From contig CALQYY010000002.1 of assembly GCA_943349075.1 (NCBI GenBank), forward strand, positions 1 through 42,993: DNA of 42,993 bases, written 5' to 3'. Shown in pieces: positions 1 to 22,661 of this stretch; within the stretch, counting starts at the first letter, position 1, and the number at the start of each line of letters is the position of its first letter. Both the position numbers and the translations under genes were made by a program. This stretch comes from Candidatus Magasanikiibacteriota bacterium (lineage in GTDB: Bacteria > Patescibacteriota > Patescibacteriia > Magasanikbacterales > 2-02-FULL-50-9b). Under the pieces are notes generated by a model that saw only the letters and a list, made by a program, of their open reading frames with translations, made no database searches and was not told the DNA's origin.

Positions 1-2343
1 ACAATTGCAACAACAGATCTTAAGAACGTTAAGCTCAATGTTGCAGGTATTCAGTATGGTGCAACTCAGGATCTTGGTGCAGACAACACTCTCTCATTTG
101 ATTTCTCAGGTGCAGCAGATGGTGGTCTCAAGCTCCTTGCTGGTCAGACCAAGTTTTTGGATCTCGTTGGTGATATTGCTGGTGGTACAAACCGCACATT
201 CGCTTTCAGCATCCAGAACCAGGAAGATGTGCAAGCTTATGACAATGCATACAAGGTATTCGTACCAGTATATGCATGGTCTTCAGACGCTTTCACAATC
301 CAAACTCTTGCAAACACAACTGTAAATACAGGTAATCTTACAACATCAATTGCAGTAGGCGCTCCAAATGGTAACGTTGCACTTAACGCTTCAAGCGTAA
401 CAGTTGCTCGTTTCAACTTGTCAGCAGCTGGCGAAAATGTGAAGATTACAGGTCTTACAGTTACTTCAACAGCATCTTCATCAACGATTCCATTCAAGAA
501 TGTTAAGTTGATGCTCGACGGCACTCAGGTTGGTTCAACTGTTGCATCTCTTGCTTCAGGACTTCCAACTTCTTACACTTTCAGTAATAACTTTACAGTT
601 AAGGTTGGAACTCCAAGTGTTCTTGAAATCGTTGTTGATTTGAATGATTCTGAACTTGTACTTAATGGTGCAAATAAGACATTCTCATTCGGACTTGTAG
701 TAGGTTCATCTAATGCACAGGGCATTATCTCACTTACTTCAATGTCAACAGGTGCAGTTAATGGTAACACTTTGACTCTCAAGTCAGGTGCTCCAACCGT
801 ATCTCAGAACACAGCATTGGTTAACGCATCAACTTCTACACCAAGTGGTGTAATTAATGACACTGATGTTAAAATTGGTTCATTCGTTATCTCAGCAGGT
901 GCAGGCGAAGGTACTAAGATCACTTCACTTTCACTTCAGGACAACTCTGTTGCTTTGAATGGCCTCTTCAGCAATCTCCGCATCCGTGGTTTGAATGCTG
1001 CTGGTCAGTACGGCGACCTTGCTCCTGGTGTAGGTAACTTGAGCGGTTCAGGATCAACATACTCATTCTCATTGCCAACTGCACTTACTCTTACAAAGGG
1101 TCAGCAGTACGTAATGGACGTTGTTGCTAATGTTCTCTCAACAACTTCATCTTCAGCACTTGACATGGCTAATACAGCTGTTATCAAGGTTAAGGATGCT
1201 TCAGTTGCATACCAGACACTCGAAACAGCACAGAGCAATACAATTGCGACTGGTGCGACAGGACAGGTTGTATACCTTGTTTCAAAGGGCTCACTTGCAG
1301 CAGCAGTTTCAGCAGATACCCCAGTTGCACAGCAGCTCGTTATGGGTGCAACAAACCAGCCTATCTTGAAGTTCAAGCTTACAGCTGGTAAGTCAGAAGA
1401 TTTGTCAGTATCTGAACTTGCAGCAGCGGTTACAATCATGGCTTCAACAACTCCAACAGGTATTCTTTCGAATATCCGTTTGCTTGATGGTGACGCACAG
1501 GTTGGAAATGCAGTTGCTTCACTTACAGCATCTGACGCTTCAGCAACACCTGCAACTTCAACTGCATATGCGAAGTTCTCAGCATTGTCAATCACAGTGC
1601 CAAAGAATACTTCAAAGACATATACATTGGTTGCGGACGTAGCAGCATCTCCAGACATCTACTCAGGTCTTAATTTCACTGCATACTTGGTGAATAGCTA
1701 CGATCAGTCAGGAAGTTTGGCAATCATTGCAAAGGGTGCAAAGAGTGGTGCAGCAATTACAGCAACAGGTGTAGTTGCGGGCCATAATTCTTCAACTGTA
1801 CGTGGTAACTTGCTTACTGTGTACAAGACAAAGCTTACTGTTGCTCACGCTGCAAATGCTCCATCTGGCGCATCTTCAAAGAGTGCAACACAAGTAGTAG
1901 CTAAGTTTGTAGTTTCAAACTCAGCAAATGTGAACAACCAGGCTGCAGATATCTCGTCAATGGACTTGACCGTTGCAACTTCAATTTCACAGGTTGGAGA
2001 TGTTGTAGTAACTCTCTATAAGACGGAATCACGTACAACAGCAAACTCACTCATCACAACAACTTTGACGGGTGCAGGTGGTCAGACTGTATTACTCGGT
2101 TCGTTACGTTCTGAGACTACTGATCCAATGTTTACCATTGGAACACATACATTTACCGCGGTTTCAATTGAATCTGGTACATCTCAGACATTCACTGTAG
2201 AGATGGACACAAGCGATGCATCAGCTAACAACACCCTTACTGTGGGTCTTGCAGCTGGTGACCTTGGTTGGTCAGATGGCTACTCAGCACGTCTTACTTC
2301 AGTTGACAGCTTGCCACTTACTGGCAAGACACTTACTTACTAG
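1..2343 (+). CDS. Large modular Ser/Thr/Ala/Val/Asn-rich secreted surface protein (S-layer/adhesin-like, family not recognised); 5' end lies outside the window
   Basis: Frame 1 is open from nt 1 (TIATTDLKNVKLNVAGIQYG...) and runs into the listed 157..2343 ORF, ending at TAG 2341-2343. There is no Cys in the visible 780 aa. It contains repeated modules. Codon choice is strongly biased (ggt, gca/gct, act/aca, tca, gtt/gta), unlike the neighbouring genes. A strong terminator follows. Confidence 0.8.
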   Translation, partial: TIATTDLKNVKLNVAGIQYGATQDLGADNTLSFDFSGAADGGLKLLAGQTKFLDLVGDIAGGTNRTFAFSIQNQEDVQAYDNAYKVFVPVYAWSSDAFTIQTLANTTVNTGNLTTSIAVGAPNGNVALNASSVTVARFNLSAAGENVKITGLTVTSTASSSTIPFKNVKLMLDGTQVGSTVASLASGLPTSYTFSNNFTVKVGTPSVLEIVVDLNDSELVLNGANKTFSFGLVVGSSNAQGIISLTSMSTGAVNGNTLTLKSGAPTVSQNTALVNASTSTPSGVINDTDVKIGSFVISAGAGEGTKITSLSLQDNSVALNGLFSNLRIRGLNAAGQYGDLAPGVGNLSGSGSTYSFSLPTALTLTKGQQYVMDVVANVLSTTSSSALDMANTAVIKVKDASVAYQTLETAQSNTIATGATGQVVYLVSKGSLAAAVSADTPVAQQLVMGATNQPILKFKLTAGKSEDLSVSELAAAVTIMASTTPTGILSNIRLLDGDAQVGNAVASLTASDASATPATSTAYAKFSALSITVPKNTSKTYTLVADVAASPDIYSGLNFTAYLVNSYDQSGSLAIIAKGAKSGAAITATGVVAGHNSSTVRGNLLTVYKTKLTVAHAANAPSGASSKSATQVVAKFVVSNSANVNNQAADISSMDLTVATSISQVGDVVVTLYKTESRTTANSLITTTLTGAGGQTVLLGSLRSETTDPMFTIGTHTFTAVSIESGTSQTFTVEMDTSDASANNTLTVGLAAGDLGWSDGYSARLTSVDSLPLTGKTLTY
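19..2050 (+). repeat. At least 4 divergent tandem protein modules of ~160-180 aa inside the surface protein
   Basis: Motif B recurs as KNVKLNVAGIQYG (nt ~19), FKNVKLMLDGTQVGSTVASL (~493), FSNLRIRGLNAAGQYG (~967) and LSNIRLLDGDAQVGNAVASL (~1468). Motif A recurs as ARFNLSAAGENVKITGLTV (~398), IGSFVISAGAGEGTKITSLSL (~865), ILKFKLTAGKSEDLSVSEL (~1357) and VAKFVVSNSANVNNQAADISSMDL (~1893). The period is ~470-540 nt. The repeat is visible at protein level only. Confidence 0.6.
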
Positions 2344-2379
2344 TTCTCTAGTTTGTAACGTCTTCTGTAGAAGAAATGG

Positions 2380-2408
2380 AGCCGCCCTTCGGGGCGGCTT
2401 TGTTTTTT
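2380..2408 (+). terminator. Rho-independent terminator of the surface-protein gene
   Basis: AGCCGCCC-TTCG-GGGCGGCT forms an 8-bp GC-rich stem with a TTCG tetraloop, followed by TTGTTTTTT. Confidence 0.85.
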
Positions 2409-2428
2409 GCTAGACTTAGCGTTTAATA

Positions 2429-2457
2429 TTGACAATTTTTTAAATTTGTAGTATAGT
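2429..2457 (+). promoter_or_regulatory. Sigma70-type promoter for the Cys-repeat lipoprotein gene
   Basis: TTGACA (2429-2434), a 17-nt spacer, then TATAGT (2452-2457). A GGGAGG Shine-Dalgarno at 2505-2510 sits 6 nt before ATG 2517. Confidence 0.65.
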
Positions 2458-2516
2458 TTTTAGTCGCGTTTGTAGAGTTACTGCGCGAGTAGTCGATCTT
2501 TTTCGGGAGGTTAGTC

Positions 2517-4193
2517 ATGGGCCGTATTTCTTTGTTACTTCTGGCGTTTGTGTTTGTGCTCGTTGGCTGTATGGAAGAGGAGAAGGAATTATCCTCGAAG
2601 CAGATGGCCGGTGAGGTCCAGCCGCCGGATAGTGGCGGAGCAGATATCTCGGTGGCGGAGGTGTCGCAAGGCACCGACGCTGCGATCGAGGAGGATGCGA
2701 CCGATGCGGTCGATGCGGCGGAAGTCGCCGCTGACGTTGAGATCGCGAGTCTCGACACTGAAGAGGTGTCGGACGCGATGGACGCTGAGATGGTCGACGA
2801 AGTTGCCGCTGAGGTCGCCGATGTTTCGGATACGACCGAGGTTACTGAAACGGTCGATGATACAGAGGTTTCAGTCAGTGATGCTGACGCCGCAGTTGAC
2901 GCAACAGAAACCCAGGGTGCACAAGATGTTCCGGATGTTTCAGTCGAAGACACAGATTCTGTGATTGAGATCGCGGGAGATGTGTCTGTGGTGATTGACG
3001 CGGATGACACCTCTGACGTCGTTGCTGATACTGCTGAAGTGCTTGAAGAAGTTACGGGTGGTGACGCTGTGGTAGATGTCCAGCAGGACATTGCGCCGGA
3101 TGCGCCACCCGATGTGACGTCTCAGGACATTCCGGGGGAGACTTCGCCCGATGTTCCGCCTCCGGATCCTTGTCTCACACTCAACTGTGACGACAAGAAT
3201 CCATGCACGCTGGATTCGTGCAGCAAGACTCTTGGTTGCAGCAATGCGCCGACGGTCGTGATGTGCGAGGATGGGAATGCGTGCACTGTTGGCGATGTTT
3301 GCATCTCAGGCACGTGTACGGCTGGGGCGCCAACAAAGTGCAACGACGGCAATCCCTGCACCACTGACAGTTGCGATCCGAAGTTTGGCTGCTTTTTTGC
3401 GCCAAACTCGCTTGCGTGCGAGGATGGCGACATCTGCACCGAAGGCGAGAAGTGCTCAAGCGGCAGCTGCACGGCAGGACAGACCAAGAACTGCAGCGAC
3501 GGCAACGTATGCACGAGCGATGCGTGCGACTCGGTTAAGGGGTGTGAGAACAAACCGATGACTGGGGTATGCAGCGACGGCAATGCATGTACAGAAAGCG
3601 ACTTCTGCTCTGCGGGGTCATGTTTTTCAGGGACAGCGAAGGCGTGCGACGACGGAAATGCGTGCACCAGTAACGTGTGCGACCAGGCCAAGGGGTGTGT
3701 GAACGCTCCGAACTGGGTGTTTTATGACTTGGAGGACGCTAAACTACCGCTGAACTGGACACTTGGCGGGAATATGCAAGTCACGTGCAGTTTTGGTAAC
3801 GAATTCAAAACTAAATGTGTCTTTCTGGTTCCGCAAGGAGCTCCGGCGTACACAACCTCATTTGCGGAGCTCGATCTGGATAAGGTCCGTGCGAGCTACA
3901 AGATGGGGGAGAGTGATCTAAATATTCGGCTTTGGAGCGGCAGGTTCCAATTCGTGAACAATATGGATACCATGATGTCGTCTATCGTGGACGGTGCTGG
4001 TAAAAACATTCTCTCCAAAGTACTCGACGGAGCTACGGGAACCGCTGTTTTACAGAAGTTCATTGTCCCGAAATCGGGTTTGCTACTTCGCCTTATGCTT
4101 GTGCTGACGGAGAAGCCACTCCTGACAGGTCCGGCAGTCTGGGGCAGGGTTCTGATCGCTCCGGTTGAGTGCACGCCACCCGTGACTCCTTAA
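2517..4193 (+). CDS. Secreted lipoprotein with a polyacidic low-complexity stalk, seven cysteine-rich CxDGNxCTxDxC-type repeats and an unknown ~160-aa C-terminal domain
   Basis: The lipobox is MGRISLLLLAFVFVLVG-C. Residues ~40-218 are almost only D/E/A/V/T/S. The Cys repeats lie at 3171-3710. The gene has a strong SD, promoter and terminator. G+C is visibly higher than in its neighbours. Confidence 0.8.
   Translation: MGRISLLLLAFVFVLVGCMEEEKELSSKQMAGEVQPPDSGGADISVAEVSQGTDAAIEEDATDAVDAAEVAADVEIASLDTEEVSDAMDAEMVDEVAAEVADVSDTTEVTETVDDTEVSVSDADAAVDATETQGAQDVPDVSVEDTDSVIEIAGDVSVVIDADDTSDVVADTAEVLEEVTGGDAVVDVQQDIAPDAPPDVTSQDIPGETSPDVPPPDPCLTLNCDDKNPCTLDSCSKTLGCSNAPTVVMCEDGNACTVGDVCISGTCTAGAPTKCNDGNPCTTDSCDPKFGCFFAPNSLACEDGDICTEGEKCSSGSCTAGQTKNCSDGNVCTSDACDSVKGCENKPMTGVCSDGNACTESDFCSAGSCFSGTAKACDDGNACTSNVCDQAKGCVNAPNWVFYDLEDAKLPLNWTLGGNMQVTCSFGNEFKTKCVFLVPQGAPAYTTSFAELDLDKVRASYKMGESDLNIRLWSGRFQFVNNMDTMMSSIVDGAGKNILSKVLDGATGTAVLQKFIVPKSGLLLRLMLVLTEKPLLTGPAVWGRVLIAPVECTPPVTP
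3171..3710 (+). repeat. Seven ~24-27 aa cysteine repeats alternating between two subtypes
   Basis: Type A units: CDDKNPCTLDSCSKTLGC, CNDGNPCTTDSCDPKFGC, CSDGNVCTSDACDSVKGC, CDDGNACTSNVCDQAKGC. Type B units: CEDGNACTVGDVCISGTC, CEDGDICTEGEKCSSGSC, CSDGNACTESDFCSAGSC. From memory these resemble the Dictyostelium CTDC repeat (Pfam Dicty_CTDC). This has not been verified. Confidence 0.6.
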
Positions 4194-4199
4194 CAACTA

Positions 4200-4260: not shown

Positions 4261-4269
4261 CGCTAAACT
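4241..4269 (+). promoter_or_regulatory. Possible promoter giving a (near-)leaderless transcript for the first Wzy_C-TPR gene
   Basis: TTGCCG (4241-4246, inside the terminator's 3' arm), a 17-nt spacer, then TAAACT (4264-4269). ATG 4279 is only 9 nt downstream and has no SD. Confidence 0.35.
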
Positions 4270-4278
4270 AGGCATACT

Positions 4279-6189
4279 ATGAAATTGAACTCTCAAATAT
4301 TTTTGGCCTCTCTGTGTCTTTTGCTCGCGACCCCATTTTTGGTTGTGGAAGGGCTTCAGTTTCCTTACCAAACAACTCGAATTATTGCGTTTTCTGTTGC
4401 AATGGTTGGCTTGCTTGGGGCAACACTTTGGCGCGTACGGGAAGAGAAAAGTTTTCGCGAGCGAATTTCAGAGGTCGTTTCACATCCCATCGCAATCATA
4501 TATGGGCTCTATATTGGATGGCTTTTTGTTCGAACGCTGCCAGTTTTTTCCGCAGAAGCTTTGTGGGGAACGTGGTTTCGTTTTGATGGAATTTTGTTTG
4601 AAACGGCTTTTTTGTGCGCGATAATTGCAATTGCTGCGTGGTCTGCTGAGTTTGAATTTCGAGGAATCCAAAAGAAATCGTATGTTATTTTTGGAATGGC
4701 TGCGATATTTTCTCTTATAGTTTTTCCTGCATTGTCGCTCGATCGATATGTAGGACTTCTTCCTGAGGGGCGTTTTAATGGATCCGTTGGTAACCCTCTT
4801 TTTTTGGCTGGGTTGCTTTTGTTTTTTCCACTGTTTGCATCTCACTTTAAGAATCAAACACTAACAGCTATTATTTCTGTCGTGAGTCTTGGGTTTTTGT
4901 ATGCAACTGGAACGCGTGGAGCATTTCTTGCGGCATTTGTTGGGGTGCTCGTGCTTGTATGGGAGTCGAAAAAAATTCAGAAATCGGTGCGTGTTGGAGT
5001 GGTGAGTGTCGCACTTACGTTGGTTCTTGTTGCAGGTGTGTTGGTTTTAACAAACAAGATTTCAATTTCTCGAAGTGTAACAATTGCAACGCGTTTTGAA
5101 ATGTGGAAATCGGGCGCGCGCGAACTACTGCATCAGCCGCTCATCGGATTTGGAATGGGTGAGTATCGAAACAATATTGATCGCGGCTCGGCGAATTTGA
5201 GCGAGGTTTCATATGGCGAGATTTCGGACTCAACGCATTCGGCATATCTCGATATTGCGCTGAAGGGCGGCGTCATTGCACTTCTCATCTATGTTTTGTG
5301 GATTGGGGTAGTGTACCGTTCAATTGCAGGAGAAGACAAAGCGCTCGCGCGAGCAACGGTGGCAGCTTATTCTGCACTACTTGTAACATCTCCATGGATG
5401 GCGTGGACCGCGATACCACTTATTTTTGTGATTGCAGGTCACATTGGACGCAAAAAAAGTTTGCCGTTTATTAATTATTCGTTCATTGCTTTGAGCTGTC
5501 TTGTTATATTTTTGTCTGCGCTCACCGCTGTTTTTGCTACGCAAAGCGCTCGATATCTTGATCGTGTGGCAGATGCGATGGCTGTGCAGAAGTTTGTGGC
5601 GTTTCCGGAGGGAATGCTTGCGACGAATAAGTTCCTACCCTTTTCGAGTGATTTTGGGGTTGAGCTTTTGCGACTCACCATGCCAACAGGAACTTTCGCA
5701 GTTTCACCAAGTTTTGGAAGTTATATCAAGGGGAAAGTGTTGCCTGTATTTTCTGCGGTGGAGCTACGCACACTTCATCCTGATAGCCTCAATGTCGCTG
5801 CAACCTGGGCAAGCTCGTATGCGTCGGCAGGTCTTACAGGTGAGCATAATGTGTGGTTCGAGCGATCGCTCAGTTTGCAAAAACGGGCGCTTGCAATCAA
5901 TCCAGAGCGGCCAGCAGCGGTTTTTCAGGCAGCAGATTCGCTGAGAGAAATGGGACATATGTCAGAGGCAATATCGATGCTCAAGGACTTTGCGGATAAG
6001 CACCCAACACTTCCTGAGGCTCATTTTTATCACGCCTTGATGGTTGATATCTCAGGAGATGTGCACGGCGCGTATATGATTGAACAGCAAATCAAAAAAG
6101 ATTTCCCTAATTATGGATGGAAGGAAAGTTTAGCTGGGTGGTTCACCAGTATCGAAGCGCGCGCTCAGAAATTGCCTGCTTCAAAATAG
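4279..6189 (+). CDS. O-antigen-ligase-like (Wzy_C) polytopic membrane protein with a C-terminal TPR-like domain, paralogue 1
   Basis: It has many hydrophobic spans. Shared motifs are GTRGAFLAAFVG, GFGMGEYRN and DSTHSAYLDIALKGG. The C-terminal ~200 aa is helical-repeat (…ALAINPERPAAVFQAADSLREMGHMSEAISML…). The N-terminal P-F-L-V-V…F-P-Y segment is shared with the other three paralogues. Confidence 0.75.
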   Translation: MKLNSQIFLASLCLLLATPFLVVEGLQFPYQTTRIIAFSVAMVGLLGATLWRVREEKSFRERISEVVSHPIAIIYGLYIGWLFVRTLPVFSAEALWGTWFRFDGILFETAFLCAIIAIAAWSAEFEFRGIQKKSYVIFGMAAIFSLIVFPALSLDRYVGLLPEGRFNGSVGNPLFLAGLLLFFPLFASHFKNQTLTAIISVVSLGFLYATGTRGAFLAAFVGVLVLVWESKKIQKSVRVGVVSVALTLVLVAGVLVLTNKISISRSVTIATRFEMWKSGARELLHQPLIGFGMGEYRNNIDRGSANLSEVSYGEISDSTHSAYLDIALKGGVIALLIYVLWIGVVYRSIAGEDKALARATVAAYSALLVTSPWMAWTAIPLIFVIAGHIGRKKSLPFINYSFIALSCLVIFLSALTAVFATQSARYLDRVADAMAVQKFVAFPEGMLATNKFLPFSSDFGVELLRLTMPTGTFAVSPSFGSYIKGKVLPVFSAVELRTLHPDSLNVAATWASSYASAGLTGEHNVWFERSLSLQKRALAINPERPAAVFQAADSLREMGHMSEAISMLKDFADKHPTLPEAHFYHALMVDISGDVHGAYMIEQQIKKDFPNYGWKESLAGWFTSIEARAQKLPASK

Positions 6190-8194: not shown

Positions 8195-8223
8195 TTGATT
8201 TTTTTGTCTTAATAAGGTAGACT
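8195..8223 (+). promoter_or_regulatory. Plus-strand promoter for paralogues 3-4 and the downstream GT operon
   Basis: TTGATT (8195-8200), a 17-nt spacer, then TAGACT (8218-8223). The implied TSS near 8230 lies downstream of the GTG at 8226, which favours ATG 8241 as the start. Confidence 0.5.
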
Positions 8224-8240
8224 CAGTGCCAGAAATATCT

Positions 8241-13737: not shown

Positions 13738-13799
13738 AAAAGTTGTCTTGACATCTCCGATTGGCTTTTGTTATTGTTAGCAACATATTGTACAAATTT

Positions 13800-15972: not shown

Positions 15973-15988
15973 ATAAATTCGTTATAAT
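15959..15988 (+). promoter_or_regulatory. Promoter for the TPR/S8-protease/UXS/GT operon
   Basis: TTGACA (15959-15964), an 18-nt spacer, then TATAAT (15983-15988). The -35 and spacer overlap the first codons of the divergent sugar-transferase gene. Confidence 0.55.
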
Positions 15989-16030: not shown

Positions 16031-16729
16031 ATGAAGGTCACGCAAAAACAGGCTATTTTGATTGTTGTAGGGCTTTTAATCTGCGCGAGCCTCGGCTTTT
16101 GTGGATACAAATTTTTTAATCGCAGTGTTTCGGTTCCAGACAAGGCTGCACTTGATGGAAAATCAGATTTGCAAGTTGCCTATGACCGCGCCGTTAAGTA
16201 TGAAGCGCTTGTTACGGAAAAACCAACGGAAATACAAAACTATTTAGCAGCAGCATCTGCGTGGAAATTAATCGGTGACGCAACACATGATGACGTCTGG
16301 TACGAGCTCTCGCTTCAGGCATATGAGCGTGGCATAACGATTACGAAACGAAAAAATTCGTTGTTTCTTTCAAATGCAGGTCAGATTGAGGAGCAGATGG
16401 GAAACTATTCGAAAGCAAAATCATACTATTTGGAGTCAATTGATTTGTCACCGGGTGATACAAGTTACCACCTCATGCATATCAATTTGCTGCGCTACAA
16501 ATACAAAGCAGATCCAAGCGAAATTCTTGCAGCGTACGAACTTGGTATGAACCGTGTGCTCGGTGGTGCGGACTTAATTTCAAGCCGGTCGCAATATTTT
16601 AAGGCGATTGGCCGATATGCTGATGCACGTCGCGATCTTGAATTATTGCTCACCAATAATGTGATAACTCAACAGCAGATGGACAGTGAATTGCTTGAGA
16701 TGAAAAATTTGGAAGAGGCGGCTAATTAA
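16031..16729 (+). CDS. Membrane-anchored TPR-repeat protein
   Basis: The single N-terminal TM helix is ILIVVGLLICASLGFCGY. TPR-like repeats follow (…NAGQIEEQMGNYSKAKSYYLESIDLSPGDTSYHL…). Confidence 0.7.
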   Translation: MKVTQKQAILIVVGLLICASLGFCGYKFFNRSVSVPDKAALDGKSDLQVAYDRAVKYEALVTEKPTEIQNYLAAASAWKLIGDATHDDVWYELSLQAYERGITITKRKNSLFLSNAGQIEEQMGNYSKAKSYYLESIDLSPGDTSYHLMHINLLRYKYKADPSEILAAYELGMNRVLGGADLISSRSQYFKAIGRYADARRDLELLLTNNVITQQQMDSELLEMKNLEEAAN

Positions 16730-16746: not shown

Positions 16747-18744
16747 GTGAAACGATCTTTTATTGGAACGACTGCCGTTGTTGTACAGATGTGTGCGCTC
16801 TTTTTGTCACCGAGCGTTGTTTTAGCGCTTGTTCCAAATGATCCGCAGCTCAATTTGAAGGGTGGTGTTGAATCATTGCAGTTGCCACAAGCATGGGATA
16901 TTACGCAAGGATCGAGCGATGTTATTGTTGCGGTGATTGATGCGGGCGTTGATATTTCAAATTCCGATTTAACAGAAAATATTTGGTTGAATCCAAAAGA
17001 ACAGTCCGATGGGGTTGATAATGATGGAAACGGTTTGATTGATGATGTTCGTGGGTGGAATTTTGTAAAAAATAATGGAGATGTTCGTCCAATTGCGTCA
17101 GCTGGAGAGACAAGTAGAATTGGTTTAAATCATGGAAGTGTCATTGCAGGCATTATCGGAGCTGTTGGAAATAATGGTGTCGGTGGTGCGGGAGTTAATT
17201 GGCGCGTTAAGATTTTGCCGCTGAAAATTTTAGATGAGCGCGGTGAAGGAGATACAGATCTTGCGGTGAAGGCAATTGATTATGCAATTCAGAAAAAAGC
17301 ATCAATCATTAATTTGAGTTTTGTTGGGCCAACACCAAGTTTGGATTTTATCCAGGCTGTCCGTCGCGCATATCGTGCAGGAATTTTGGTAATCGCAGCA
17401 GCTGGGAATGCTCCTGAAGGTCAGAGCGGAACAAATCTCAATGATCAGCCACAATATCCGGTTTGTTTTGACGATCCGTTAAAAGAAGAGAATTGGGTGA
17501 TCGGTGTTGCAGCGCTTTCAGAAGACGGACAGCTCGCGCCATTTTCTAATTACGGTAGCAAGTGTATCGATATTTCTGCGCCAGGGGCACGCATTCCTTC
17601 AACTGTATTGTTTGATCCAGCGTCAGGAAACAATGAAATCTATGGAGGCGGCTGGTCGGGTACATCAATTGCTGCGCCGTTTGTGTCGGGGGTTGCGGCG
17701 CTTGTTAAGAGTATTCAGCCAAAATGGGGTCCTGATGAAATTCGCAAGGCGTTGCTCGATACAGTTGATCCGGTTCCAGGAAATACCACGCGTGCTGCAG
17801 GACTTGGTTCCGTTAATGCATACAAGGCAGTTCGCTATGCAGAGCATGGTGGCGACGGCGGACTTGAGAGTGGTTTTTATATAGCACCTGTCAAGACGGC
17901 TCGTGGAGTTGTGGCGCATGTGCTCGATACACAATTTAAACAAACAAAATCTTTTGTTGTGGCGCCAGCAGGAACTGTTGACGTTCAACTAACAACAGGT
18001 GATGTTCAGGCATCGGGAGTTTCGCAGATTATTGCTGCAACATCAAACTCAAAAGGTTCACTCGTTCGAATTTTTCAGCGTGACGGAAAATTGATGAAAG
18101 AATTTCGACCGTTTGATAATAAAGAGCGCGGAGCTTTGTCGGTATTCTCAGCTGATTTAGATGGAAACGGATCTGACGAAACAATTGTCGGCTCGAGCAA
18201 ACTCAAACGTGTTTCAATCTACGAAGGAACGGGAAAACTTCGTGGCACCATTAATATTCCGGAAACAAAAGGTTCGGTATATGTAGTTGCCGATCGTCTA
18301 ATTGACCGTACCGTCGTGCTCACAGCAGTCCAGCAAGGAAAGCAAGTTGTTGTCTATGTGTGGGATCAGTTTGGAACATACTTGTCGGATTTTGTTATCC
18401 CGCTTGAGACCGCAAACCCAATTAGCATTGGATTCGCGCCAGGTGAAAACGGATCACAACGGTTTTACGTTGCGCAGCAAACGAGCAAAAACGTAAAAAT
18501 TTATTTCAGCACGTTGGATGGTCTTGTAACCCAGGTTATTTCAGCAGTTCCACCTGCGGGAAAACTCTATGGATTTACATTTGGTAAAAATCAGGATGGC
18601 GAAAATTCGCAGCTTATTTTAGGGGTATCAAATGGCACGTCGTCGCTGTTTGAAACTGTTAATGCGCTCGGCGAAATTTCTGGTGTCAGCAAGATTGATG
18701 CGCTTAAATCATTAAAATTCACTGGTCTTTATTTCGGAAAATAA
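16747..18744 (+). CDS. Secreted subtilisin-like serine protease (peptidase S8) with a C-terminal FG-GAP/VCBS-like beta-propeller region
   Basis: It starts at a GTG and has a signal-like N-terminus. The catalytic triad contexts are VAVIDAGVD (Asp), HGSVIAGIIGA (His) and GTSIAAPFVSG (Ser). The C-terminal half contains FSADLDGNGSDETIVGS and a repeated beta-strand pattern. Confidence 0.85.
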   Translation: MKRSFIGTTAVVVQMCALFLSPSVVLALVPNDPQLNLKGGVESLQLPQAWDITQGSSDVIVAVIDAGVDISNSDLTENIWLNPKEQSDGVDNDGNGLIDDVRGWNFVKNNGDVRPIASAGETSRIGLNHGSVIAGIIGAVGNNGVGGAGVNWRVKILPLKILDERGEGDTDLAVKAIDYAIQKKASIINLSFVGPTPSLDFIQAVRRAYRAGILVIAAAGNAPEGQSGTNLNDQPQYPVCFDDPLKEENWVIGVAALSEDGQLAPFSNYGSKCIDISAPGARIPSTVLFDPASGNNEIYGGGWSGTSIAAPFVSGVAALVKSIQPKWGPDEIRKALLDTVDPVPGNTTRAAGLGSVNAYKAVRYAEHGGDGGLESGFYIAPVKTARGVVAHVLDTQFKQTKSFVVAPAGTVDVQLTTGDVQASGVSQIIAATSNSKGSLVRIFQRDGKLMKEFRPFDNKERGALSVFSADLDGNGSDETIVGSSKLKRVSIYEGTGKLRGTINIPETKGSVYVVADRLIDRTVVLTAVQQGKQVVVYVWDQFGTYLSDFVIPLETANPISIGFAPGENGSQRFYVAQQTSKNVKIYFSTLDGLVTQVISAVPPAGKLYGFTFGKNQDGENSQLILGVSNGTSSLFETVNALGEISGVSKIDALKSLKFTGLYFGK

Positions 18745-18747
18745 CCT

Positions 18748-19764
18748 ATGGCAAACTCAACGGAATTTCAAAAAAAGAATTCAATCGTAACAGGCGGTGC
18801 AGGATTTATTGGCTCTCATTTGTGTGAGGCGCTTCTTGCGGAGGGTCGTGTGATTTGTATTGATAATTTGAGCAATGCTTCAACCGACAATATTGAACCA
18901 ATGCTTTCAAACCCTGATTTCGTTTTCATCAAGCATGATGTGTGTCAGCCGCTTGATCTTGAGTCGCTTCCAGAGCTTGAGCGTTTTCGCATCTCAGTTC
19001 AGGGTATACAAGAAGTTTTTCATCTTGCGTGTCCAATGAGTGTGCAGAATTTTAATCTCAATCGTATCGCAATTCTTGATGCAAACAGTGCTGCGGTTAA
19101 AACAACGCTTGATTGGGCGGTGAAATATAAAGCGCGTTACGTCTTCGCATCAAGTGCATGCGTATATGGTCCACGCGTTTCAGACCTTCCGGTCAAAGAA
19201 AATACACTCGGGATTTTGGATCATATGACCATGCGTGCAGCGTATGATGAAGGTAAGCGATTTGCCGAGACAATGATTTCAACGTACGCGGATATTATGG
19301 GAGTCGATGCACGTGTTGCACGAATTTTCCGTACCTATGGGCCACGTCTTAAAATGCATGATGCTCAGATGATTACTGATTTTGTGGTGAGCGCACTTGA
19401 TAATGCACCGATGGTTGTGTACGGCGCTGAGACAATGAAAACAACTCTTTTGTATGTGACGGATGCGGTTTCGGCTCTTATGAAATTAGCAAAAGTACAA
19501 AGTGGTGTAGGGCCAATGAATATTGGAAGTGAGCAAGAATATACGTTTGCTGAGATTGCAGGGAAGGTGAAGGAGATTATCAAATCAGAATCAACGGTTG
19601 CGCACGAAGAACCACTCGAATTTTTGTCAGAGCATGTGATTCCAGATATCACGTATGCAAAACAGGTGCTTGGTTGGATGCCAATGGTTCGACTCGAAAA
19701 TGGTCTCGATCATTTGGCGGATTATGTGAGTGCTAACCGAAACAAATTAACGTATTCTGTATGA
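18748..19764 (+). CDS. NAD-dependent UDP-glucuronate decarboxylase (UDP-xylose synthase-like SDR)
   Basis: Motifs are VTGGAGFIGSHLCEALL, the YxxxK context YDEGKRFAE, and RIFRTYGPRL. All are typical of UXS/ArnA-C-type decarboxylases. Confidence 0.78.
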   Translation: MANSTEFQKKNSIVTGGAGFIGSHLCEALLAEGRVICIDNLSNASTDNIEPMLSNPDFVFIKHDVCQPLDLESLPELERFRISVQGIQEVFHLACPMSVQNFNLNRIAILDANSAAVKTTLDWAVKYKARYVFASSACVYGPRVSDLPVKENTLGILDHMTMRAAYDEGKRFAETMISTYADIMGVDARVARIFRTYGPRLKMHDAQMITDFVVSALDNAPMVVYGAETMKTTLLYVTDAVSALMKLAKVQSGVGPMNIGSEQEYTFAEIAGKVKEIIKSESTVAHEEPLEFLSEHVIPDITYAKQVLGWMPMVRLENGLDHLADYVSANRNKLTYSV

Positions 19765-20420
19765 AGATCTTAGTCGTTGTACCTGCGTACAACGAAGCAA
19801 CAACAATTGAGGGTGTACTGCGAGCGATGCAGGGAGTGCACGATGTTGTTGTAATTGACGATGGTTCAACCGATAACACAGGAGAGGTTGCGCGCGCATC
19901 GGGAGCTCTGACGCTTCGGCACGTGGTAAATCGAGGGCTTGGAGCGGCGCTGCGTACAGGGTTTGCCTATGCGCTGTCGCGAGGCGATACGTATGATGCT
20001 GTCATCACGCTTGATGCTGATGGGCAACATAATCCAGCCGAGATTGAAAATTTCATTGCAGCACTTGATGCTGGTGCTGAAGTTGTGATCGGTCGCCGCG
20101 AATTTTCAGATATGCCGCGCATTCGTCAGGCATATAATGCCGCGGGAGCGATTATTACCTCAGCACTGTTCGGTGGTCCGTTCACTGATTCGCAATCCGG
20201 TTTTCGCGCATTTCAGGTCACCAAATTACGCGATTTTCGACTGATGACATCGCGCATGGAAATTTCATCAGAAATTATTGCTGAGGCATATCGCGTCGGC
20301 GCAAAAATCCAGCAAATCCCAATCTCCATTGCGTATACTGAATATTCAATGAGCAAAGGGCAGGGGTTTTTTGAGGGACTTCGAACTTTGTGGCGTCTCG
20401 TATTAAAAAGTTTTGCGTGA
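19761..20420 (+). CDS. Glycosyltransferase family 2, small polyprenol-phosphate glycosyltransferase type (DPM1/GtrB-like)
   Basis: Motifs are VVPAYNEATTIEGVL, VVVIDDGSTDNT and the DxD-type LDADGQH. It is 219 aa. It shares an ATGA overlap with the preceding gene. Confidence 0.82.
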   Translation: MKILVVVPAYNEATTIEGVLRAMQGVHDVVVIDDGSTDNTGEVARASGALTLRHVVNRGLGAALRTGFAYALSRGDTYDAVITLDADGQHNPAEIENFIAALDAGAEVVIGRREFSDMPRIRQAYNAAGAIITSALFGGPFTDSQSGFRAFQVTKLRDFRLMTSRMEISSEIIAEAYRVGAKIQQIPISIAYTEYSMSKGQGFFEGLRTLWRLVLKSFA

Positions 20421-20424
20421 TTTT

Positions 20425-20778
20425 ATGAATACACAACCGCTTGTAATGCAGATAATCCTAACGATGATAGCGATGCTCGGACTTGAGCGCATCGTGAGTC
20501 GACTTCGAGCTCGTCAAATGGGGCTTGGAATTGTTGGAATTTGGTTTTTTGGAACTGCTATTTTTCTCCTTTTTGTTTGGCGCCCAGAACTCTCGACGCG
20601 TTTTTCGCAGATGATTGGTATCGGACGTGGTGTTGATGCTGCTGTATATATTGCTGTTGCAATTTTATTTTACGCAATGCTTCGAATGTTGCTCCGACTT
20701 GAACGACAGGAAAATTTGATTACACGTTTGGTGAGCGAAATTGCGCTACTAAAAAACGATATCGAACAAAAAAAATAA
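20425..20778 (+). CDS. Small membrane protein, DUF2304-like (usual partner of GT2 enzymes)
   Basis: It has 3-4 TM helices followed by an amphipathic tail (RLERQENLITRLVSEIALLKNDI). The layout matches my memory of DUF2304. ATG 20425 is preferred over the TTG at 20413. Confidence 0.6.
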   Translation: MNTQPLVMQIILTMIAMLGLERIVSRLRARQMGLGIVGIWFFGTAIFLLFVWRPELSTRFSQMIGIGRGVDAAVYIAVAILFYAMLRMLLRLERQENLITRLVSEIALLKNDIEQKK

Positions 20779-20781
20779 CAT

Positions 20782-21879
20782 ATGCGAATTGCATTTGTTT
20801 CGGCTGTTTTTCCTCCAACGCGTGGAGGAATGTGCACGGTCGCTGCTGCGGAGGCGATTGAGCTCGCGAAAAAACATGTAGTAACGGTATTTACGCTACG
20901 AACTGACAACCCGCGGAAAGATTTACTCATCGATCGCGCGCACGATTTTGAGACCGTTCGTCTTCAGGGGTTGCCGCGTATTTCGCTCGGTGGATTCGTG
21001 CCGCAGCTTTTATGGCACCTACGCTCATTCGACGCGGTTTATGCGCATTTGCCGGCATATGGATTCATGGAGGTTTTGATTTTGTGGAAACTCATGACAC
21101 GCCGGAAATTGGTGGTGACGGTTCATATGGATCCGATTGGTTCGGGGCTTTTTAAGCTCATTTTTAAACTCGAGCGGTTTGTGTTGCGTGCAGTGATTTC
21201 GCGCACAGACTCTATTCGAATTTCAACAGAACATTTTTCGCGCGACAGTTTATTTGGTGGAATTTCTCAGAATAAAATTTCAATTATTCCATTTGGAATT
21301 GATGTAAACAAATTCAATCCGGTGGAGGGTGAAAAAAAGACTGTGTTTTTATTTGTGGGGAGGTTGAGTCGAACACATTATTTTAAAGGTGTTGAATTGT
21401 TGCTTCGTGCATTTAAATCTGTGCTGGAAAAGAATGGTGGTGCGGAGCTGTTAATTGTTGGTGATGGTGATGAGAGAAAAAATTATGAACGCGTGGCGGA
21501 GAAGCTCCATCTTTCTCGGCATGTAACATTTTTAGGTGCAGTTTCTGATGAGGAATTGCCGGGTGTTTATTCGCGTGCGTCGTGTTTTGTTTTGCCGTCG
21601 ACAGATACGTCGGAAACATTTGGTCTTGTGCTCTTGGAAGCTATGGCAAGTGGGGTTCCAGTTATCGCAAGCCGGTTGCCGGGCGTTGATTCGGTTGTGT
21701 CAGACGGTTATTCGGGCCGCCTTATCGAACCGGGAAATGAAACAGAGCTTGTGAATGCGATGAATGATGCGGCAGTGCGAAAAAATGAGTGGAAAAATTT
21801 TGGTGTGAATGCGCGAGCACGCGCTTTGGAGTATGGCGATTGGAAAGGCATTGCGGCGAAAATTGATTCTCTGATATAA
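20782..21879 (+). CDS. Glycosyltransferase family 4
   Basis: The signature is VLPSTDTSETFGLVLLEAMASGVPVIASRLPGVDSVVSDGYSGRLIEPGN. Confidence 0.85.
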   Translation: MRIAFVSAVFPPTRGGMCTVAAAEAIELAKKHVVTVFTLRTDNPRKDLLIDRAHDFETVRLQGLPRISLGGFVPQLLWHLRSFDAVYAHLPAYGFMEVLILWKLMTRRKLVVTVHMDPIGSGLFKLIFKLERFVLRAVISRTDSIRISTEHFSRDSLFGGISQNKISIIPFGIDVNKFNPVEGEKKTVFLFVGRLSRTHYFKGVELLLRAFKSVLEKNGGAELLIVGDGDERKNYERVAEKLHLSRHVTFLGAVSDEELPGVYSRASCFVLPSTDTSETFGLVLLEAMASGVPVIASRLPGVDSVVSDGYSGRLIEPGNETELVNAMNDAAVRKNEWKNFGVNARARALEYGDWKGIAAKIDSLI

Positions 21880-21917
21880 TACGCCAGATTAAAAAACTAA
21901 TCAGCAATTTTATACGT

Positions 21918-22661
21918 ATGCAAGAAAATAATGAATCATGGGTGAATTCAGTTCCGCCAAAAACAATGTTTATCGGCGGTATCGTTGGTGGAGTTTTGGT
22001 TTTATGTACGATTGGATTTTTTATTTTACTCGGCATGAAACTTAGCGGACCATCAAATGTTGCGCTCGCACCATCAGCTGCGGTTCCTCAGGGCGATGAG
22101 GCGCCAGCACCTGTTGGAAAACCAGCTGACGTAACATCTGACGATCACGTTCTCGGACCAAACAATGCAAAAGTAACATTGATCGCATATTCAGATTTTC
22201 AGTGTCCATTTTGCCAGCGATTTCATCCAACAGCTTTGAAGCTTGTGAACGACTACAAAGGAAAGGTTCGCTTGGTATTTCGCTCATTTCCTTTGAGCTC
22301 AATTCATCCTCAGGCACAAAAAGCATCAGAAGCTGCTGAATGTGTTGCAAGCTTGAAAGGTAACGATGCTTTTTGGAAATATGCAGACGCACTCTTTCAG
22401 AATCAGGATACTTTGAGCGAAACATTGTTTGCTGACCTTGCGGTTAAAGCGGGTGTGAACAAGGGTGCGTTCCAGAGCTGTTTGTCGTCAGGAAAGTTTG
22501 CAGCAAAAGTGAATGCTTCAGAAGCTGAGGGCGCAAGCGCAGGCGTTCAGGGAACTCCAGCAACATTTGTAATCGCACCTGACGGCTCAGCTGAGCTCAT
22601 GGGCGGTGCACTTCCATACGAACAGGCAAAAACATATATTGAGCGTGCGCTCCAGAAGTAA
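21918..22661 (+). CDS. Membrane-anchored DsbA-family thiol:disulfide oxidoreductase
   Basis: It has an N-terminal TM helix, the thioredoxin-fold active site FQCPFCQRF, and a DsbA-like tail (GVQGTPATFVI). Confidence 0.82.
   Translation: MQENNESWVNSVPPKTMFIGGIVGGVLVLCTIGFFILLGMKLSGPSNVALAPSAAVPQGDEAPAPVGKPADVTSDDHVLGPNNAKVTLIAYSDFQCPFCQRFHPTALKLVNDYKGKVRLVFRSFPLSSIHPQAQKASEAAECVASLKGNDAFWKYADALFQNQDTLSETLFADLAVKAGVNKGAFQSCLSSGKFAAKVNASEAEGASAGVQGTPATFVIAPDGSAELMGGALPYEQAKTYIERALQK

Follow-up and report, generated by a model that had tools for sequence, protein, structure and literature searches.

The 42,993-nucleotide stretch analyzed here (the window) comes from an uncultured, small-genome, Magasanikbacteria-like bacterium of the CPR/Patescibacteria. 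Pfam and NCBIfam scans took in all open reading frames (ORFs) of at least 100 amino acids (aa) of this 43-kb window. A giant surface-protein gene is followed by genes for four WaaL-like TPR membrane enzymes and for sugar-chain assembly. This block is truncated by the left edge of the window; it is best explained as a conserved island of cell-surface genes in CPR, of which the downstream two-thirds are in view.

Gene content of the island

The block begins with the C-terminal 780 aa of a secreted surface protein of about 1,230 aa (1 to 2343, + strand), the candidate glycan acceptor. As first described, it is rich in serine and threonine and free of cysteine (25% Ser plus Thr and 0 Cys in the fragment). 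The structure model of the fragment (pLDDT 85, all-beta) shows Ig-like beta-sandwich domains in tandem; tandem Ig-like domains are also what it matches best in the PDB, namely, those of PrgB, integrin legs, and antigen I/II. Since no known S-layer protein structure was matched in the PDB structure comparison, the protein may be an adhesin. The 140 homologues found are mostly 1,100 to 1,300 aa long and, wherever named, all belong to Patescibacteria; the full-length ones begin with an N-terminal signal peptide, and PF01471 (PG_binding_1) is present in distant ones.

An intrinsic terminator (AGCCGCCC-ttcg-GGGCGGCT, then a T-run; 2380 to 2409, +) closes this gene. The lipoprotein encoded next (2517 to 4193, +) has the lipobox LVGC, an acidic linker, 33 cysteines, and Dicty_CTDC-type Cys-rich repeats, and its homologues adjoin the surface gene in three relatives (L019, L020, and L022). 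It is likely an accessory surface protein and a client of the membrane-anchored DsbA-like thiol-disulfide oxidoreductase (DsbA/Thioredoxin_4) encoded at 21918 to 22661 (+); given that the surface protein lacks cysteine, the 33-Cys lipoprotein is the most plausible substrate of this DsbA. Four proteins with Wzy_C and C-terminal TPR domains, recognized previously and borne out by the scans, follow: W1 (4279 to 6189, +), W2 (6165 to 8147, −), W3 (8226 to 10370, +), and W4 (10374 to 12593, +), the most conserved of the four.

The initiator of glycan synthesis is a WbaP/WcaJ-type polyprenyl-phosphate hexose-1-phosphate transferase (14599 to 15972, −; Bac_transf 4e-62, CoA_binding_3), and a TIGR03025 score of 356.7 bits against a cut-off of 295.55 upholds its earlier assignment as WbaP type. 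Three GT4 genes had been counted within positions 1 to 22661 and a fourth beyond; the scans yielded two inside (12598 to 13737, +, presumably for cytoplasmic chain extension; 20782 to 21879, +) and, just past the block as expected, a third and last in the window (22988 to 24133, +), the likely start of which is the ATG at 23006. Of two proposed UDP-sugar-modifying enzymes, the SDR nucleotide-sugar epimerase/dehydratase (18748 to 19764, +) stands. The other (13761 to 14597, +; likely start at the ATG at 13800) is a short nucleotide-sugar-dehydrogenase-like protein in which the NAD-binding domain, the central domain, and the Cys motif GYGGKCLPKD are kept but the C-terminal UDP-binding domain is missing. 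This short form also occurs in L001, L024, L105, and L106, and lengths of 255 to 295 aa prevail among the best 150 cluster representatives; the short form of this UDP-glucose-dehydrogenase-like gene is, by sequence comparison, conserved.

The remaining genes include a membrane-anchored, 232-aa, WsaA-like accessory TPR protein (16031 to 16729, +), which, like the lipoprotein, was absent from the preliminary description. It is kept in L001 (51% identity), and TPR proteins of comparable size occur in L024 (240 aa) and L110 (211 aa). The subtilisin-type (S8) protease (16747 to 18744, +), secreted or membrane anchored, shares 65% identity with its L001 counterpart and is possibly a maturase of the surface protein. 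The family scans agree with the earlier calls for this protease and for DsbA; both, together with the TPR protein, may be accessories of envelope maturation. The GT2/DUF2304 pair noted before was likewise recovered as overlapping genes: a small GT2 of the PpgS/GacI/AglJ type, a polyprenyl-monophosphate-sugar synthase (19761 to 20420, +; NF058614 PpgS 2.1e-39, under the equivalog cut-off; AglJ 5e-26), and a small DUF2304 membrane protein (20413 to 20778, +), a GacJ/Rv3632-type activator of GT2.

In total number, promoter-like and terminator-like sites show no excess in the window over shuffled controls. Among three promoters predicted earlier, the one at 15959 is a perfect sigma-70 consensus (TTGACA-18-TATAAT; 15959 to 15988, +) before the gene run from the TPR protein to DsbA, and that at 22971 is a 10/12 match (TAGAAA-17-TATAAT; 22971 to 22999) right before the likely start of the third GT4. 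None was found on the + strand at 8195, near which a 10/12 promoter-like site lies on the − strand (8187 to 8158). A further sigma-70-like match, by consensus only (TTGACA-17-TATAGT, 11/12; 2429 to 2457, +), precedes the lipoprotein and W1 genes, and a terminator-like hairpin was seen by eye 3′ of the DsbA stop codon, in the 22662-to-22988 spacer.

Wzy_C-TPR proteins

The W1 model (pLDDT 80, pTM 0.80) contains a WaaL-like membrane domain of 13 helices, the best structural match of which is the O-antigen ligase WaaL (7TPG); the comparison with the cryo-EM chain 7tpg_B gave a target TM-score of 0.55 over 440 columns with a probability of 1.0. By sequence, no similarity of the Wzy_C-TPR enzyme to PDB chains was detectable by phmmer. 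W1 shares the catalytic triad of WaaL: an Arg/Arg/His triad (R213, R272, and H320) is invariant across the four paralogues and their orthologues, and its order and spacing resemble those of WaaL R215/R288/H338 and PglL R224/R298/H349 (PMC3643930). W1 differs from WaaL in an additional transmembrane helix and the TPR domain, and the lipid A-core pathway that WaaL serves is not in view. CPR bacteria are generally regarded as lacking LPS.

By the positive-inside rule, the 13 helices and the positively charged loops of W1 (RVREEKSFRER, ESKKIQKSVR, RSIAGEDK, and RKKS) put both its catalytic loop and its TPR domain at the cell exterior. TPR domains fused or adjacent to Wzy_C transferases have precedents in WsfB, PglL, and WsaA (PMC2943079). 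Sequence cannot sort Wzy_C enzymes into O-oligosaccharyltransferases (O-OTases), ligases, and polymerases (PMC3643930). The four proteins share about 25% identity with one another, and these ancient paralogues probably divide labor; some may differ in the acceptor site or the glycan that they serve, and one could be a polymerase.

Conservation across relatives

Ten loci with surface-protein homologues (28 to 86% identity) were informative: the window, L019, L020, L022, L023, L024, L105, L106, L108, and L110. Wzy_C genes lie immediately downstream of the surface gene in seven of them (the window, L019, L020, L022, L024, L105, and L110), which are not independent events because the compared loci are phylogenetically related. 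L106 and L108 carry GT4 and sugar-modification genes at this position, bringing the loci with glycan-synthesis genes to 9/10, with L023 the sole exception. The earlier link of the island to the protein at 1 to 2343 has the support of synteny that persists down to 28% identity. Downstream Wzy_C genes are seen both with the Magasanik-type N-terminal domain and with PG_binding_1 (L110), and the PG_binding_1-type homologue of L108 is likewise followed by glycan genes. This association across N-terminal anchor types argues against a polymer required by one anchor type only.

Between the window and L019, the surface protein is 81% identical and W1 to W3 are 46 to 53% identical; the corresponding values for L105 are 46% and, for the Wzy_C-TPR orthologues, 26 to 32%. 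The Wzy_C-TPR proteins therefore outpace the surface protein in divergence, which is typical behavior of genes for glycan specificity.

Single-copy Wzy_C-TPR genes of other CPR classes were retrieved with W4 as the query. A homologue of this surface protein was nearby in none of these 17 loci (L002 to L018), which indicates that the family is not tied to this single acceptor. In these classes the Wzy_C-TPR gene adjoins secA, a DedA-family gene, a thioredoxin gene, and dsbB, a setting that fits a link with protein export.

Relation to known systems

The preliminary description placed the block among S-layer glycosylation (slg)-like systems, and its parts list does match in detail the published logic of the slg clusters of Geobacillus stearothermophilus NRS 2004/3a and Paenibacillus alvei CCM 2051T. 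Common to both are a WbaP-type initiator (as WsaP/WsfP), cytoplasmic glycosyltransferases, a position beside a large surface-protein gene, Wzy_C with fused TPR (as WsfB), a separate small TPR protein (as WsaA), and a polyprenyl-monophosphate-sugar branch without a cluster flippase (as P. alvei WsfH/WsfD) (PMC2943079). The likeness is, however, partial. The island has neither a Wzm/Wzt ABC exporter nor rml genes, its candidate flippase being, to judge from relatives, of the Wzx type and outside the island; its Wzy_C paralogues number four or five, against a single enzyme (WsaB/WsfB) in those clusters; its host is a CPR bacterium rather than a Geobacillus-type Gram-positive; and its surface protein, at most a putative lattice former, is unrelated to SgsE/SpaA.

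The PglL/TfpO O-OTase systems of Gram-negative bacteria have in common with the island Wzy_C with the Arg/Arg/His triad on an extracytoplasmic loop, presumably a Wzx-flipped Und-PP oligosaccharide donor, and a position next to the presumed target gene; such adjacency is common for O-OTase genes, with 21 of 31 PglL homologues adjoining their target (PMC3643930). They differ in that the PglL-specific PglL_A motif (PF15864) had no match in Pfam scans of the window ORFs, in that a 1,230-aa Ig-repeat protein takes the place of a pilin as candidate acceptor, and in the multiple ancient paralogues and the large structured TPR domain past the 13th helix of the W1 model. In eukaryotes, TMTC1-4 are protein O-mannosyltransferases with a GT-C fold and TPR that act on cadherin domains. 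They offer (compare PMC7801869) only an analogy, that of paralogous membrane glycosyltransferases with lumenal or extracytoplasmic TPR and a tandem beta-sandwich protein partner; they belong to the PMT clan rather than Wzy_C and use Dol-P-Man, and homology is not claimed.

The GT2/DUF2304 pair resembles the polyprenyl-phosphate-HexNAc synthase modules GacI/GacJ of Streptococcus pyogenes and PpgS/Rv3632 of Mycobacterium tuberculosis, in which a small GT2 gene is likewise followed by an overlapping DUF2304 gene; PpgS is the best NCBIfam match of the island GT2, and activation of GT2 is the described function of DUF2304 (bioRxiv 10.1101/180810). The assignment of the pair is established at the level of sequence family. 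In contrast to those modules, the partner flippase (GacK) and GT-C transferase (GacL/Rv3779) are missing from the window, and no enzyme consuming a lipid-monophosphate-sugar donor was found within it.

Proposed function

Most likely, the island belongs to a known general type of system for protein glycosylation, here in an unstudied lineage; it is slg-like and probably protein O-glycosylating, and it probably draws on a flippase encoded outside it. Its likeliest function, to which we give an even chance, is to O-glycosylate the giant surface protein with Ig-like repeats whose gene heads the island. The WbaP-type transferase, the family of which is clear, would put hexose-1-phosphate on a polyprenyl-phosphate carrier at the cytoplasmic face. 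In model bacteria this carrier is undecaprenyl phosphate (Und-P). The three GT4s would then lengthen the Und-PP oligosaccharide with sugars from the SDR enzyme and the short dehydrogenase-like protein, and a Wzx-type flippase from outside the island may flip it. Once it is on the outer face, WaaL-fold Wzy_C enzymes would transfer the glycan to Ser/Thr of the emerging surface protein. In a side branch, the GT2/DUF2304 pair could make a lipid-monophosphate-linked sugar of the Und-P-HexNAc type, a donor for extracytoplasmic decoration. Synteny and the TPR domain point to a protein acceptor, and we infer from them that the surface protein is glycosylated.

Conserved synteny would also be in keeping with a wall polymer as the glycan, co-functioning with the surface protein. 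The island might then make a Wzx/Wzy-dependent cell-wall glycopolymer or capsule-like layer and no protein-linked glycan, which we consider rather unlikely. The Wzy_C-TPR proteins would polymerize repeat units, ligate the glycan to a lipid or wall acceptor, or both, and the surface protein would be a neighbor residing, for example, on or in the polymer, much as S-layer proteins of Firmicutes bind secondary cell-wall polymers. The WbaP-type initiator, GT4s, and Wzy_C form the classic kit for repeat-unit polysaccharides; W4 weakly matches the repeat-unit polymerase model TIGR04370 (1.3e-7, under the cut-off); relatives hold upstream another short, TPR-less Wzy_C and three GT4s; the Wzy_C-TPR genes of other classes occur without this surface protein; and clustering of envelope genes is frequent. 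However, a chain-length regulator and an LCP-type wall ligase are absent from the window and the listed flanks, four or five Wzy_C paralogues per locus far exceed the need of a polymer pathway, the fused outward-facing TPR suggests a protein partner, and the association survives the anchor-domain swap to PG_binding_1.

Improbable, by our assessment, is a general O-glycosylation of many targets such as pilins, lipoproteins, and other exported proteins, in which the surface protein would be one substrate or a non-preferred one and the four paralogues would be O-OTases for separate protein classes. The neighbors of Wzy_C-TPR genes in other classes, which are secA, dsbB, and thioredoxin genes and not a particular substrate gene, speak for it, as do the Cys-rich lipoprotein, a second exported protein encoded between the surface gene and W1, and the broad spectrum of PglL-type enzymes in Neisseria (PMC3643930). 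Such a system would not need tight, long-conserved adjacency to one protein family, and the family scans revealed no pilin gene in the window.

Export of the glycan

Consistent with the earlier observation that a Wzx flippase, an ABC exporter, and a chain-length regulator are missing from the window, no Wzx/MurJ-type flippase, ABC-2 exporter, GtrA-type flippase, or Wzz-type regulator was among the listed family matches of the 43 kb. Only two small membrane proteins (28265 to 28903 and 28906 to 29220) had no family match in this check. The flanks of the relatives' island loci also contained no Wzx, ABC exporter, or chain-length regulator.

It had been proposed that export is encoded elsewhere or handled by a Wzy_C paralogue, and the comparative data favor the former, with nothing pointing to the latter. 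In five loci of other CPR classes (L003, L005, L007, L014, and L017), a Polysacc_synt (Wzx) gene directly neighbors the Wzy_C-TPR gene in divergent orientation. One island-bearing relative encodes a Wzx (L058) about 230 kb from its island (L020) on the same 533,918-bp contig, in a glycan locus of its own with a PMT_2 GT-C, a GT47-like protein, and a GT2, which it may serve exclusively. On these comparisons, another part of the genome probably supplies the island flippase. To our knowledge, no Wzy_C-family protein has been demonstrated to act as a flippase. Translocation of the lipid-linked glycan by a Wzy_C paralogue itself, with no separate flippase, would account for a window and flanks devoid of exporters and recalls the multifunctional role, including translocation, that has been proposed, though not proven, for the TPR-bearing pilin transferase TfpW (bioRxiv 10.1101/2020.04.19.049825), but it is highly implausible in view of the WaaL fold and transferase triad retained in the paralogues, the dedicated Wzx paired with Wzy_C-TPR genes in related CPR bacteria, and the Wzx encoded away from the island in its relative.

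The Wzy_C-TPR island and its gene content

The unusual feature of this island is that four to five ancient Wzy_C(-TPR) paralogues stand in a conserved array beside one giant Ig-repeat protein in CPR bacteria, an arrangement for which no description was found in the searchable literature. A Pfam scan of all ORFs of at least 100 aa in the 43-kb window and an NCBIfam scan of selected ORFs placed 16 genes in the block 1-22661. The block opens with a fragment of the surface protein (1-2343, +; 780 aa, no Cys, 25% Ser+Thr), whose gene is closed by a textbook terminator (2380-2409) followed by a near-consensus promoter. A lipoprotein with 33 Cys and Dicty_CTDC repeats (2517-4193, +) precedes the four proteins that combine Wzy_C with a C-terminal TPR, namely, W1 (4279-6189, +), W2 (6165-8147, −), W3 (8226-10370, +), and W4 (10374-12593, +). 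These are followed by a GT4 (12598-13737, +), a short nucleotide-sugar-dehydrogenase-like protein (13761-14597, likely start 13800, +), a WbaP/WcaJ-type phosphoglycosyltransferase (14599-15972, −; Bac_transf 4e-62, TIGR03025 above cut-off), a membrane-anchored TPR protein of 232 aa (16031-16729, +), an S8 protease (16747-18744, +), an SDR epimerase/dehydratase (18748-19764, +), a small GT2 (19761-20420, +; NF058614 2.1e-39, below the equivalog cut-off), a DUF2304 protein that overlaps it by 8 bases (20413-20778, +; DUF2304 3.4e-19), a second GT4 (20782-21879, +), and a DsbA-like protein (21918-22661, +). A third GT4 (22988/23006-24133) lies beyond the block, and housekeeping genes come after it (FNR-like protein, Rrf2, IscS, NifU, MetRS, TatD, and the ATP synthase operon). 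Besides the terminator at 2380-2409, the predicted operon boundaries are a terminator after 22661 and promoters at 2429, 15959, and 22971. The inventory in the preliminary description was sound overall, except that it counted three GT4 genes in the block where Pfam finds two, left out the lipoprotein and the TPR protein, and did not remark on the missing C-terminal domain of the dehydrogenase-like protein.

The only nucleotide-sugar genes of the block are those for the SDR epimerase/dehydratase and the short dehydrogenase-like protein; no rml set (rmlABCD) was found among the Pfam/NCBIfam matches of the window, and no LPS genes were found in its 43 kb. The dehydrogenase-like protein (about 255 to 295 aa) retains the Rossmann domain, the central domain, and the catalytic Cys motif GYGGKCLPKD but is devoid of the whole C-terminal UDP-binding domain. 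The short form recurs in relatives (L001, 4765-5568; L024, 17777-18556; L105, 23028 to the end; L106, 18002-18829). It represents a distinct family and not a pseudogene, given that the same short length is seen in the majority of the 150 best cluster representatives from a library of 1.8 billion proteins.

Predicted structure and topology of the Wzy_C-TPR proteins

W1 to W4 share only about 25% identity with one another, which indicates that the paralogues are ancient and not recent duplicates. The AlphaFold model of W1 (pLDDT 80, pTM 0.80) consists of 13 long helices and, after them, a TPR solenoid. Its best non-TPR match in the PDB by Foldseek is the O-antigen ligase WaaL (7tpg_B; target TM-score 0.55, probability 1.0, 440 columns), with which W1 would share its membrane fold. 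A phmmer comparison of W4 with PDB chains gave no meaningful match, so the relationship with WaaL is drawn from the structure model and Foldseek. An alignment of 17 sequences, among them all four paralogues and orthologues, shows no variation at R213, R272, and H320 (W1 numbering). Compared with the catalytic residues of WaaL and PglL (PMC3643930), this conserved Arg/Arg/His set in the Wzy_C domain resembles their triads in order and spacing, not by structural superposition.

The positively charged loops of W1 alternate as expected for an N-in, C-out topology, which would put the catalytic loop (258-325) on the outer side of the membrane together with the TPR domain. In the model, the TPR is brought to the outside by an additional, 13th helix, which WaaL lacks. 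A transferase of the WaaL type with a fused protein-interaction domain that faces outward would fit a protein acceptor. TPRs are found in WsfB and, according to a review, also in PglL, and WsaB has the TPR protein WsaA as its neighbor (PMC2943079). Nevertheless, O-oligosaccharyltransferases (O-OTases), ligases, and polymerases are inseparable by sequence (PMC3643930), and the PglL_A motif (PF15864), which separates PglL from WaaL, had no Pfam match at E <= 0.01 in any of W1 to W4. These proteins are candidates for trial in glycoengineering as new O-linking oligosaccharyltransferases.

The surface protein

The surface-protein family comprises 140 detected proteins, mostly of 1,100 to 1,300 aa, and every named one is from Patescibacteria. 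Full-length homologues carry a signal peptide at the N terminus, contain few Cys or none, and have 21 to 29% Ser+Thr; in distant homologues, PG_binding_1 takes the place of the N-terminal domain. The 780-aa fragment is modeled (pLDDT 85) as beta-sandwich domains arranged in a chain, and its best PDB matches are the tandem Ig-like domains of PrgB, integrin legs, and antigen I/II. Structure comparison with the PDB revealed no resemblance to solved S-layer proteins, and for this reason "S-layer" is used here as a label and not as a result.

The C terminus is conserved among the closer homologues (P0001 to P0057) as W[ST]DG...[DN][ST]LPL[TS]GKTL[TS]Y-stop, at 2290-2340 of the window. Its LPLTG-like motif was ruled out as a sortase signal, as neither a hydrophobic segment nor a charged tail comes after it. 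The conserved motif may form a terminal beta-strand or serve as a recognition site, possibly for the S8 protease.

In most relatives, genes for an ECF-type sigma factor and a DUF5667 anti-sigma factor lie directly upstream of the surface gene (L019, 8280-9828; L020, 8038-9833; L022, 7666-9503; L024, 7539-9641; L105, 8240-9813; L106, 8464-9711), a position that falls off the left edge of the window. This is a hint of envelope-stress-type control over the surface protein.

Conservation of the association and rates of divergence

Genomic context was retrieved for ten homologues with 28 to 81% identity to the window fragment; L109 was uninformative, as the contig ends there, and L021 is a duplicate of L020. 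The comparison across relatives proposed in the preliminary description came out mainly in its favor. One to four Wzy_C(-TPR) genes lie downstream of the surface gene in L019, L020, L022, L024, L105, and L110, as in the window; L106 and L108 have runs of GT4 and sugar-modifying genes with no Wzy_C within 10 kb, and L023 has neither Wzy_C nor glycan genes. These loci are related by descent and are therefore not independent trials. Synteny conserved down to 28% identity is nonetheless strong evidence, of a comparative kind, for functional coupling of the surface protein and the enzymes. Further upstream, close relatives have three additional GT4 genes and a short Wzy_C that lacks TPR, which shows that the island extends past the left edge of the window. 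On that side, an exact-product look-up with the lipoprotein gave no match, and W1 led to one JGI contig reaching just 657 bp farther.

The main rival to a glycosylated surface protein is a polymer of the wall or capsule that functions jointly with this protein. Had glycan genes occurred only with surface proteins that lack the PG_binding_1 anchor, an anchoring polymer would have been favored. This pattern is ruled out by L110, a homologue of the PG_binding_1 type whose gene is directly followed by two Wzy_C genes and a TPR gene, and by L108, with its run of GT4 genes. Because the association holds for this type of homologue, the simplest version of the rival, in which the glycan is the ligand of one anchor type, is removed.

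The closest genomic relative of W4 is in a Candidatus Magasanikiibacteriota MAG (L001, 47% identity), which is syntenic with the window from W3 to DsbA with per-gene identities of 44 to 78%. The remaining W4 matches are all from Saccharibacteria, Zambryskibacteria, or Parcubacteria. Since the relatives of W4 are all CPR, the host is a member of the CPR/Patescibacteria and not a classical Gram-positive. No surface-protein homologue was found beside the Wzy_C-TPR genes of other CPR classes in L002 to L018.

The identity between the window and L019 is 81% for the surface protein and 53, 46, 51, and 67% for W1, W2, W3, and W4, respectively; for L105, the values are 46% and 26, 32, 29, and 40%. The positional orthologues of W1 to W3 are thus far more diverged than the adjoining surface protein, and W4 is more conserved. 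Several W1 orthologues match a surface-protein homologue in the length of their longest contig, by which a shared contig is suggested but not proven; in these pairs, the surface protein is 81 to 84% identical to that of the window and W1 is 53 to 78% identical. Conservation within the L001 locus is lowest for the Wzy_C genes (44 to 47%, versus 50 to 78% for the rest). From the comparisons with L019, L105, and L001, the Wzy_C-TPR enzymes evolve faster than their presumed substrate. Such a difference would be typical of glycan-specificity genes, and it suggests that the transferases may be under diversifying evolution or allelic replacement.

Export of the presumed lipid-linked glycan

The preliminary description had recognized no Wzx, Wzm/Wzt, or chain-length regulator in the window, and the Pfam/NCBIfam scan confirmed this: no flippase, ABC exporter, or chain-length regulator (Wzz/PCP) family is among the matches in the 43 kb. 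ABC-transporter families are also missing from the Pfam families listed for the relatives' flanks, and Wzx is absent from window and flanks.

The Wzy_C-TPR gene that W4 retrieves from Saccharibacteria, Zambryskibacteria, and Parcubacteria has a Polysacc_synt (Wzx) gene of about 420 aa as its divergently oriented neighbor. This adjacency was confirmed by Pfam in five loci, and more loci of the same layout supplied a Wzx alignment. A search of genome contigs with this alignment led to L058, which, judged by length and sample name, is on the same contig as L020 (JBBTQS010000001.1, 533,918 bp, H41-bin251_1). L020 holds a 43%-identical surface protein and three Wzy_C-TPR genes at 283,956-307,654, and the L058 Wzx lies at about 53.5 to 54.7 kb, roughly 230 kb from this island. 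It belongs to another, second glycan locus, which also encodes two epimerase/dehydratases, a methyltransferase, a GT47-like protein, a PMT_2 GT-C, and a GT2. With the L058 Wzx as query, the search for further Wzx in the island-bearing clade returned only its own gene and one close relative.

The five-locus adjacency together with L058 indicates that CPR Wzy_C-TPR enzymes would normally work beside a Wzx and that the two are probably unlinked in this clade. We infer that the L058 Wzx serves the island. The missing exporter is thus ordinary, the flippase being just not clustered in this clade. Of the two options raised previously, export encoded elsewhere is favored by this distant Wzx and by the adjacency in other classes, and nothing seen in the analysis supports a Wzy_C paralogue as exporter.

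Two small membrane proteins (28265-28903, 212 aa with about 4 to 5 hydrophobic segments; 28906-29220, 104 aa with about 2 to 3) were considered as hidden flippases; they have no Pfam/NCBIfam match even at E <= 10. Their surroundings are Fe-S and housekeeping genes, with nifU on one side and a gene of the tetrapyrrole-methylase family on the other.

On its other side, the Wzy_C-TPR gene of the other CPR classes is followed by secA, a DedA/VTT gene, a thioredoxin gene, and dsbB, as annotated in L014. The conserved order at 8722-19469 of L014 is glycan genes, Wzx (−), Wzy_C-TPR (+), SecA, DedA/VTT, thioredoxin, DsbB, MYG1, Obg, and GatB. The same pattern of ORF sizes is repeated in seven more loci (L003, L005, L007, L010, L012, L015, and L017), spanning Saccharibacteria, Zambryskibacteria, and Parcubacteria. 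The WaaL-like transferase of these classes therefore adjoins the protein-export motor, SecA. The DedA/VTT family is implicated in lipid-carrier recycling.

A predicted second donor branch

By NCBIfam, the small GT2 is closest to PpgS and AglJ. The DUF2304 proteins GacJ and Rv3632 bind and activate a polyprenyl-phosphate-HexNAc synthase (bioRxiv 10.1101/180810), and the DUF2304 protein of the window probably corresponds to them. As the GT2/DUF2304 pair is of the polyprenyl-phosphate-sugar synthase type, the island would make two kinds of lipid-linked donor. It shares with the GacI/GacJ and PpgS/Rv3632 modules a PpgS/GacI-type GT2 with an adjacent DUF2304 protein but lacks, within the window, the cognate GT-C transferase and flippase for a monophosphate-linked sugar (no PMT_2, YfhO, GT-C, or GtrA match). 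At the corresponding position, L024 carries two GtrA genes, and PMT_2 genes are found in distant glycan loci of relatives.

Comparison with known systems

The island shares with S-layer glycosylation (slg) clusters a WsaP/WbaP-type initiator (14599-15972, −) and, as far as sequence allows, a WsaB/WsfB-type Wzy_C enzyme with a fused or neighboring TPR, present here as four Wzy_C-TPR proteins and the 232-aa TPR protein. Where slg clusters are linked to an S-layer structural gene, the island adjoins the syntenic gene of a secreted Ig-repeat protein of about 1,230 aa, which is unlike known S-layer proteins. The Wzm/Wzt ABC exporter of slg clusters is missing from the window and the relatives' flanks, and rmlABCD or other dedicated nucleotide-sugar genes are likewise lacking; for want of the exporter and the rml genes, we do not file the island as a member of the slg family. 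Unlike Wzx/Wzy-dependent loci, it has neither Wzx nor Wzz/PCP among the matches in the window. Judged from gene content, it would work like an slg cluster but by a Wzx-type route. The slg-like reading is reasonable and is backed by comparative genomics, the structure model, and the topology, with the glycosylated acceptor as the part that we infer.

It is conceivable, though on balance improbable, that the array of four or five Wzy_C-TPR proteins is a division-of-labor machine for protein O-glycosylation dedicated to one giant Ig-repeat envelope protein. The outward TPR of each paralogue would recognize a different domain, site, or glycan, which would make the array a bacterial analogue, built on Wzy_C, of the TMTC1-4/cadherin system of eukaryotes. 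Were this so, the fast-evolving enzymes would generate strain-specific surface glycoforms on a slowly evolving scaffold.

CPR/Patescibacteria account for a large part of the diversity of bacteria and live attached to other cells. To our knowledge, their envelopes are almost unstudied biochemically, and no prior description of an O-antigen ligase or oligosaccharyltransferase in CPR/Saccharibacteria was found in the literature. The island ties the main candidate surface protein to multi-paralogue, WaaL-like, TPR-bearing transferases and so offers a testable handle on how CPR build and vary their surface, with candidate acceptor, enzymes, donor pathway, and predicted promoters all defined in the window.

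Other features of the window

Rfam and tRNA scans of the window gave no match. The 327-bp noncoding spacer between dsbA and the third GT4 (22662-22988) begins with a terminator-like hairpin and includes several GGAGG/GGGGA purine runs (fold z-score −1.86, no Rfam match). In the ATP synthase operon, a gap of about 630 bp between the gamma and beta subunit genes (38344-38975) has as its sole content a 142-aa minus-strand ORF without a family match.

The lipoprotein combines an extended acidic linker, rich in Asp/Glu/Val/Ala, with about eight repeats rich in Cys (CxDGNxCTxDxC; Pfam Dicty_CTDC), and GC is noticeably higher in this region of the window (about 0.50 to 0.52, versus about 0.42 to 0.47 over most of the island). 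Homologues adjoin the surface gene in relatives (L019, 13831-15570; L020, ~647-2329; L022, 22153 to the end). This lipoprotein would be the obvious client of the island's DsbA.
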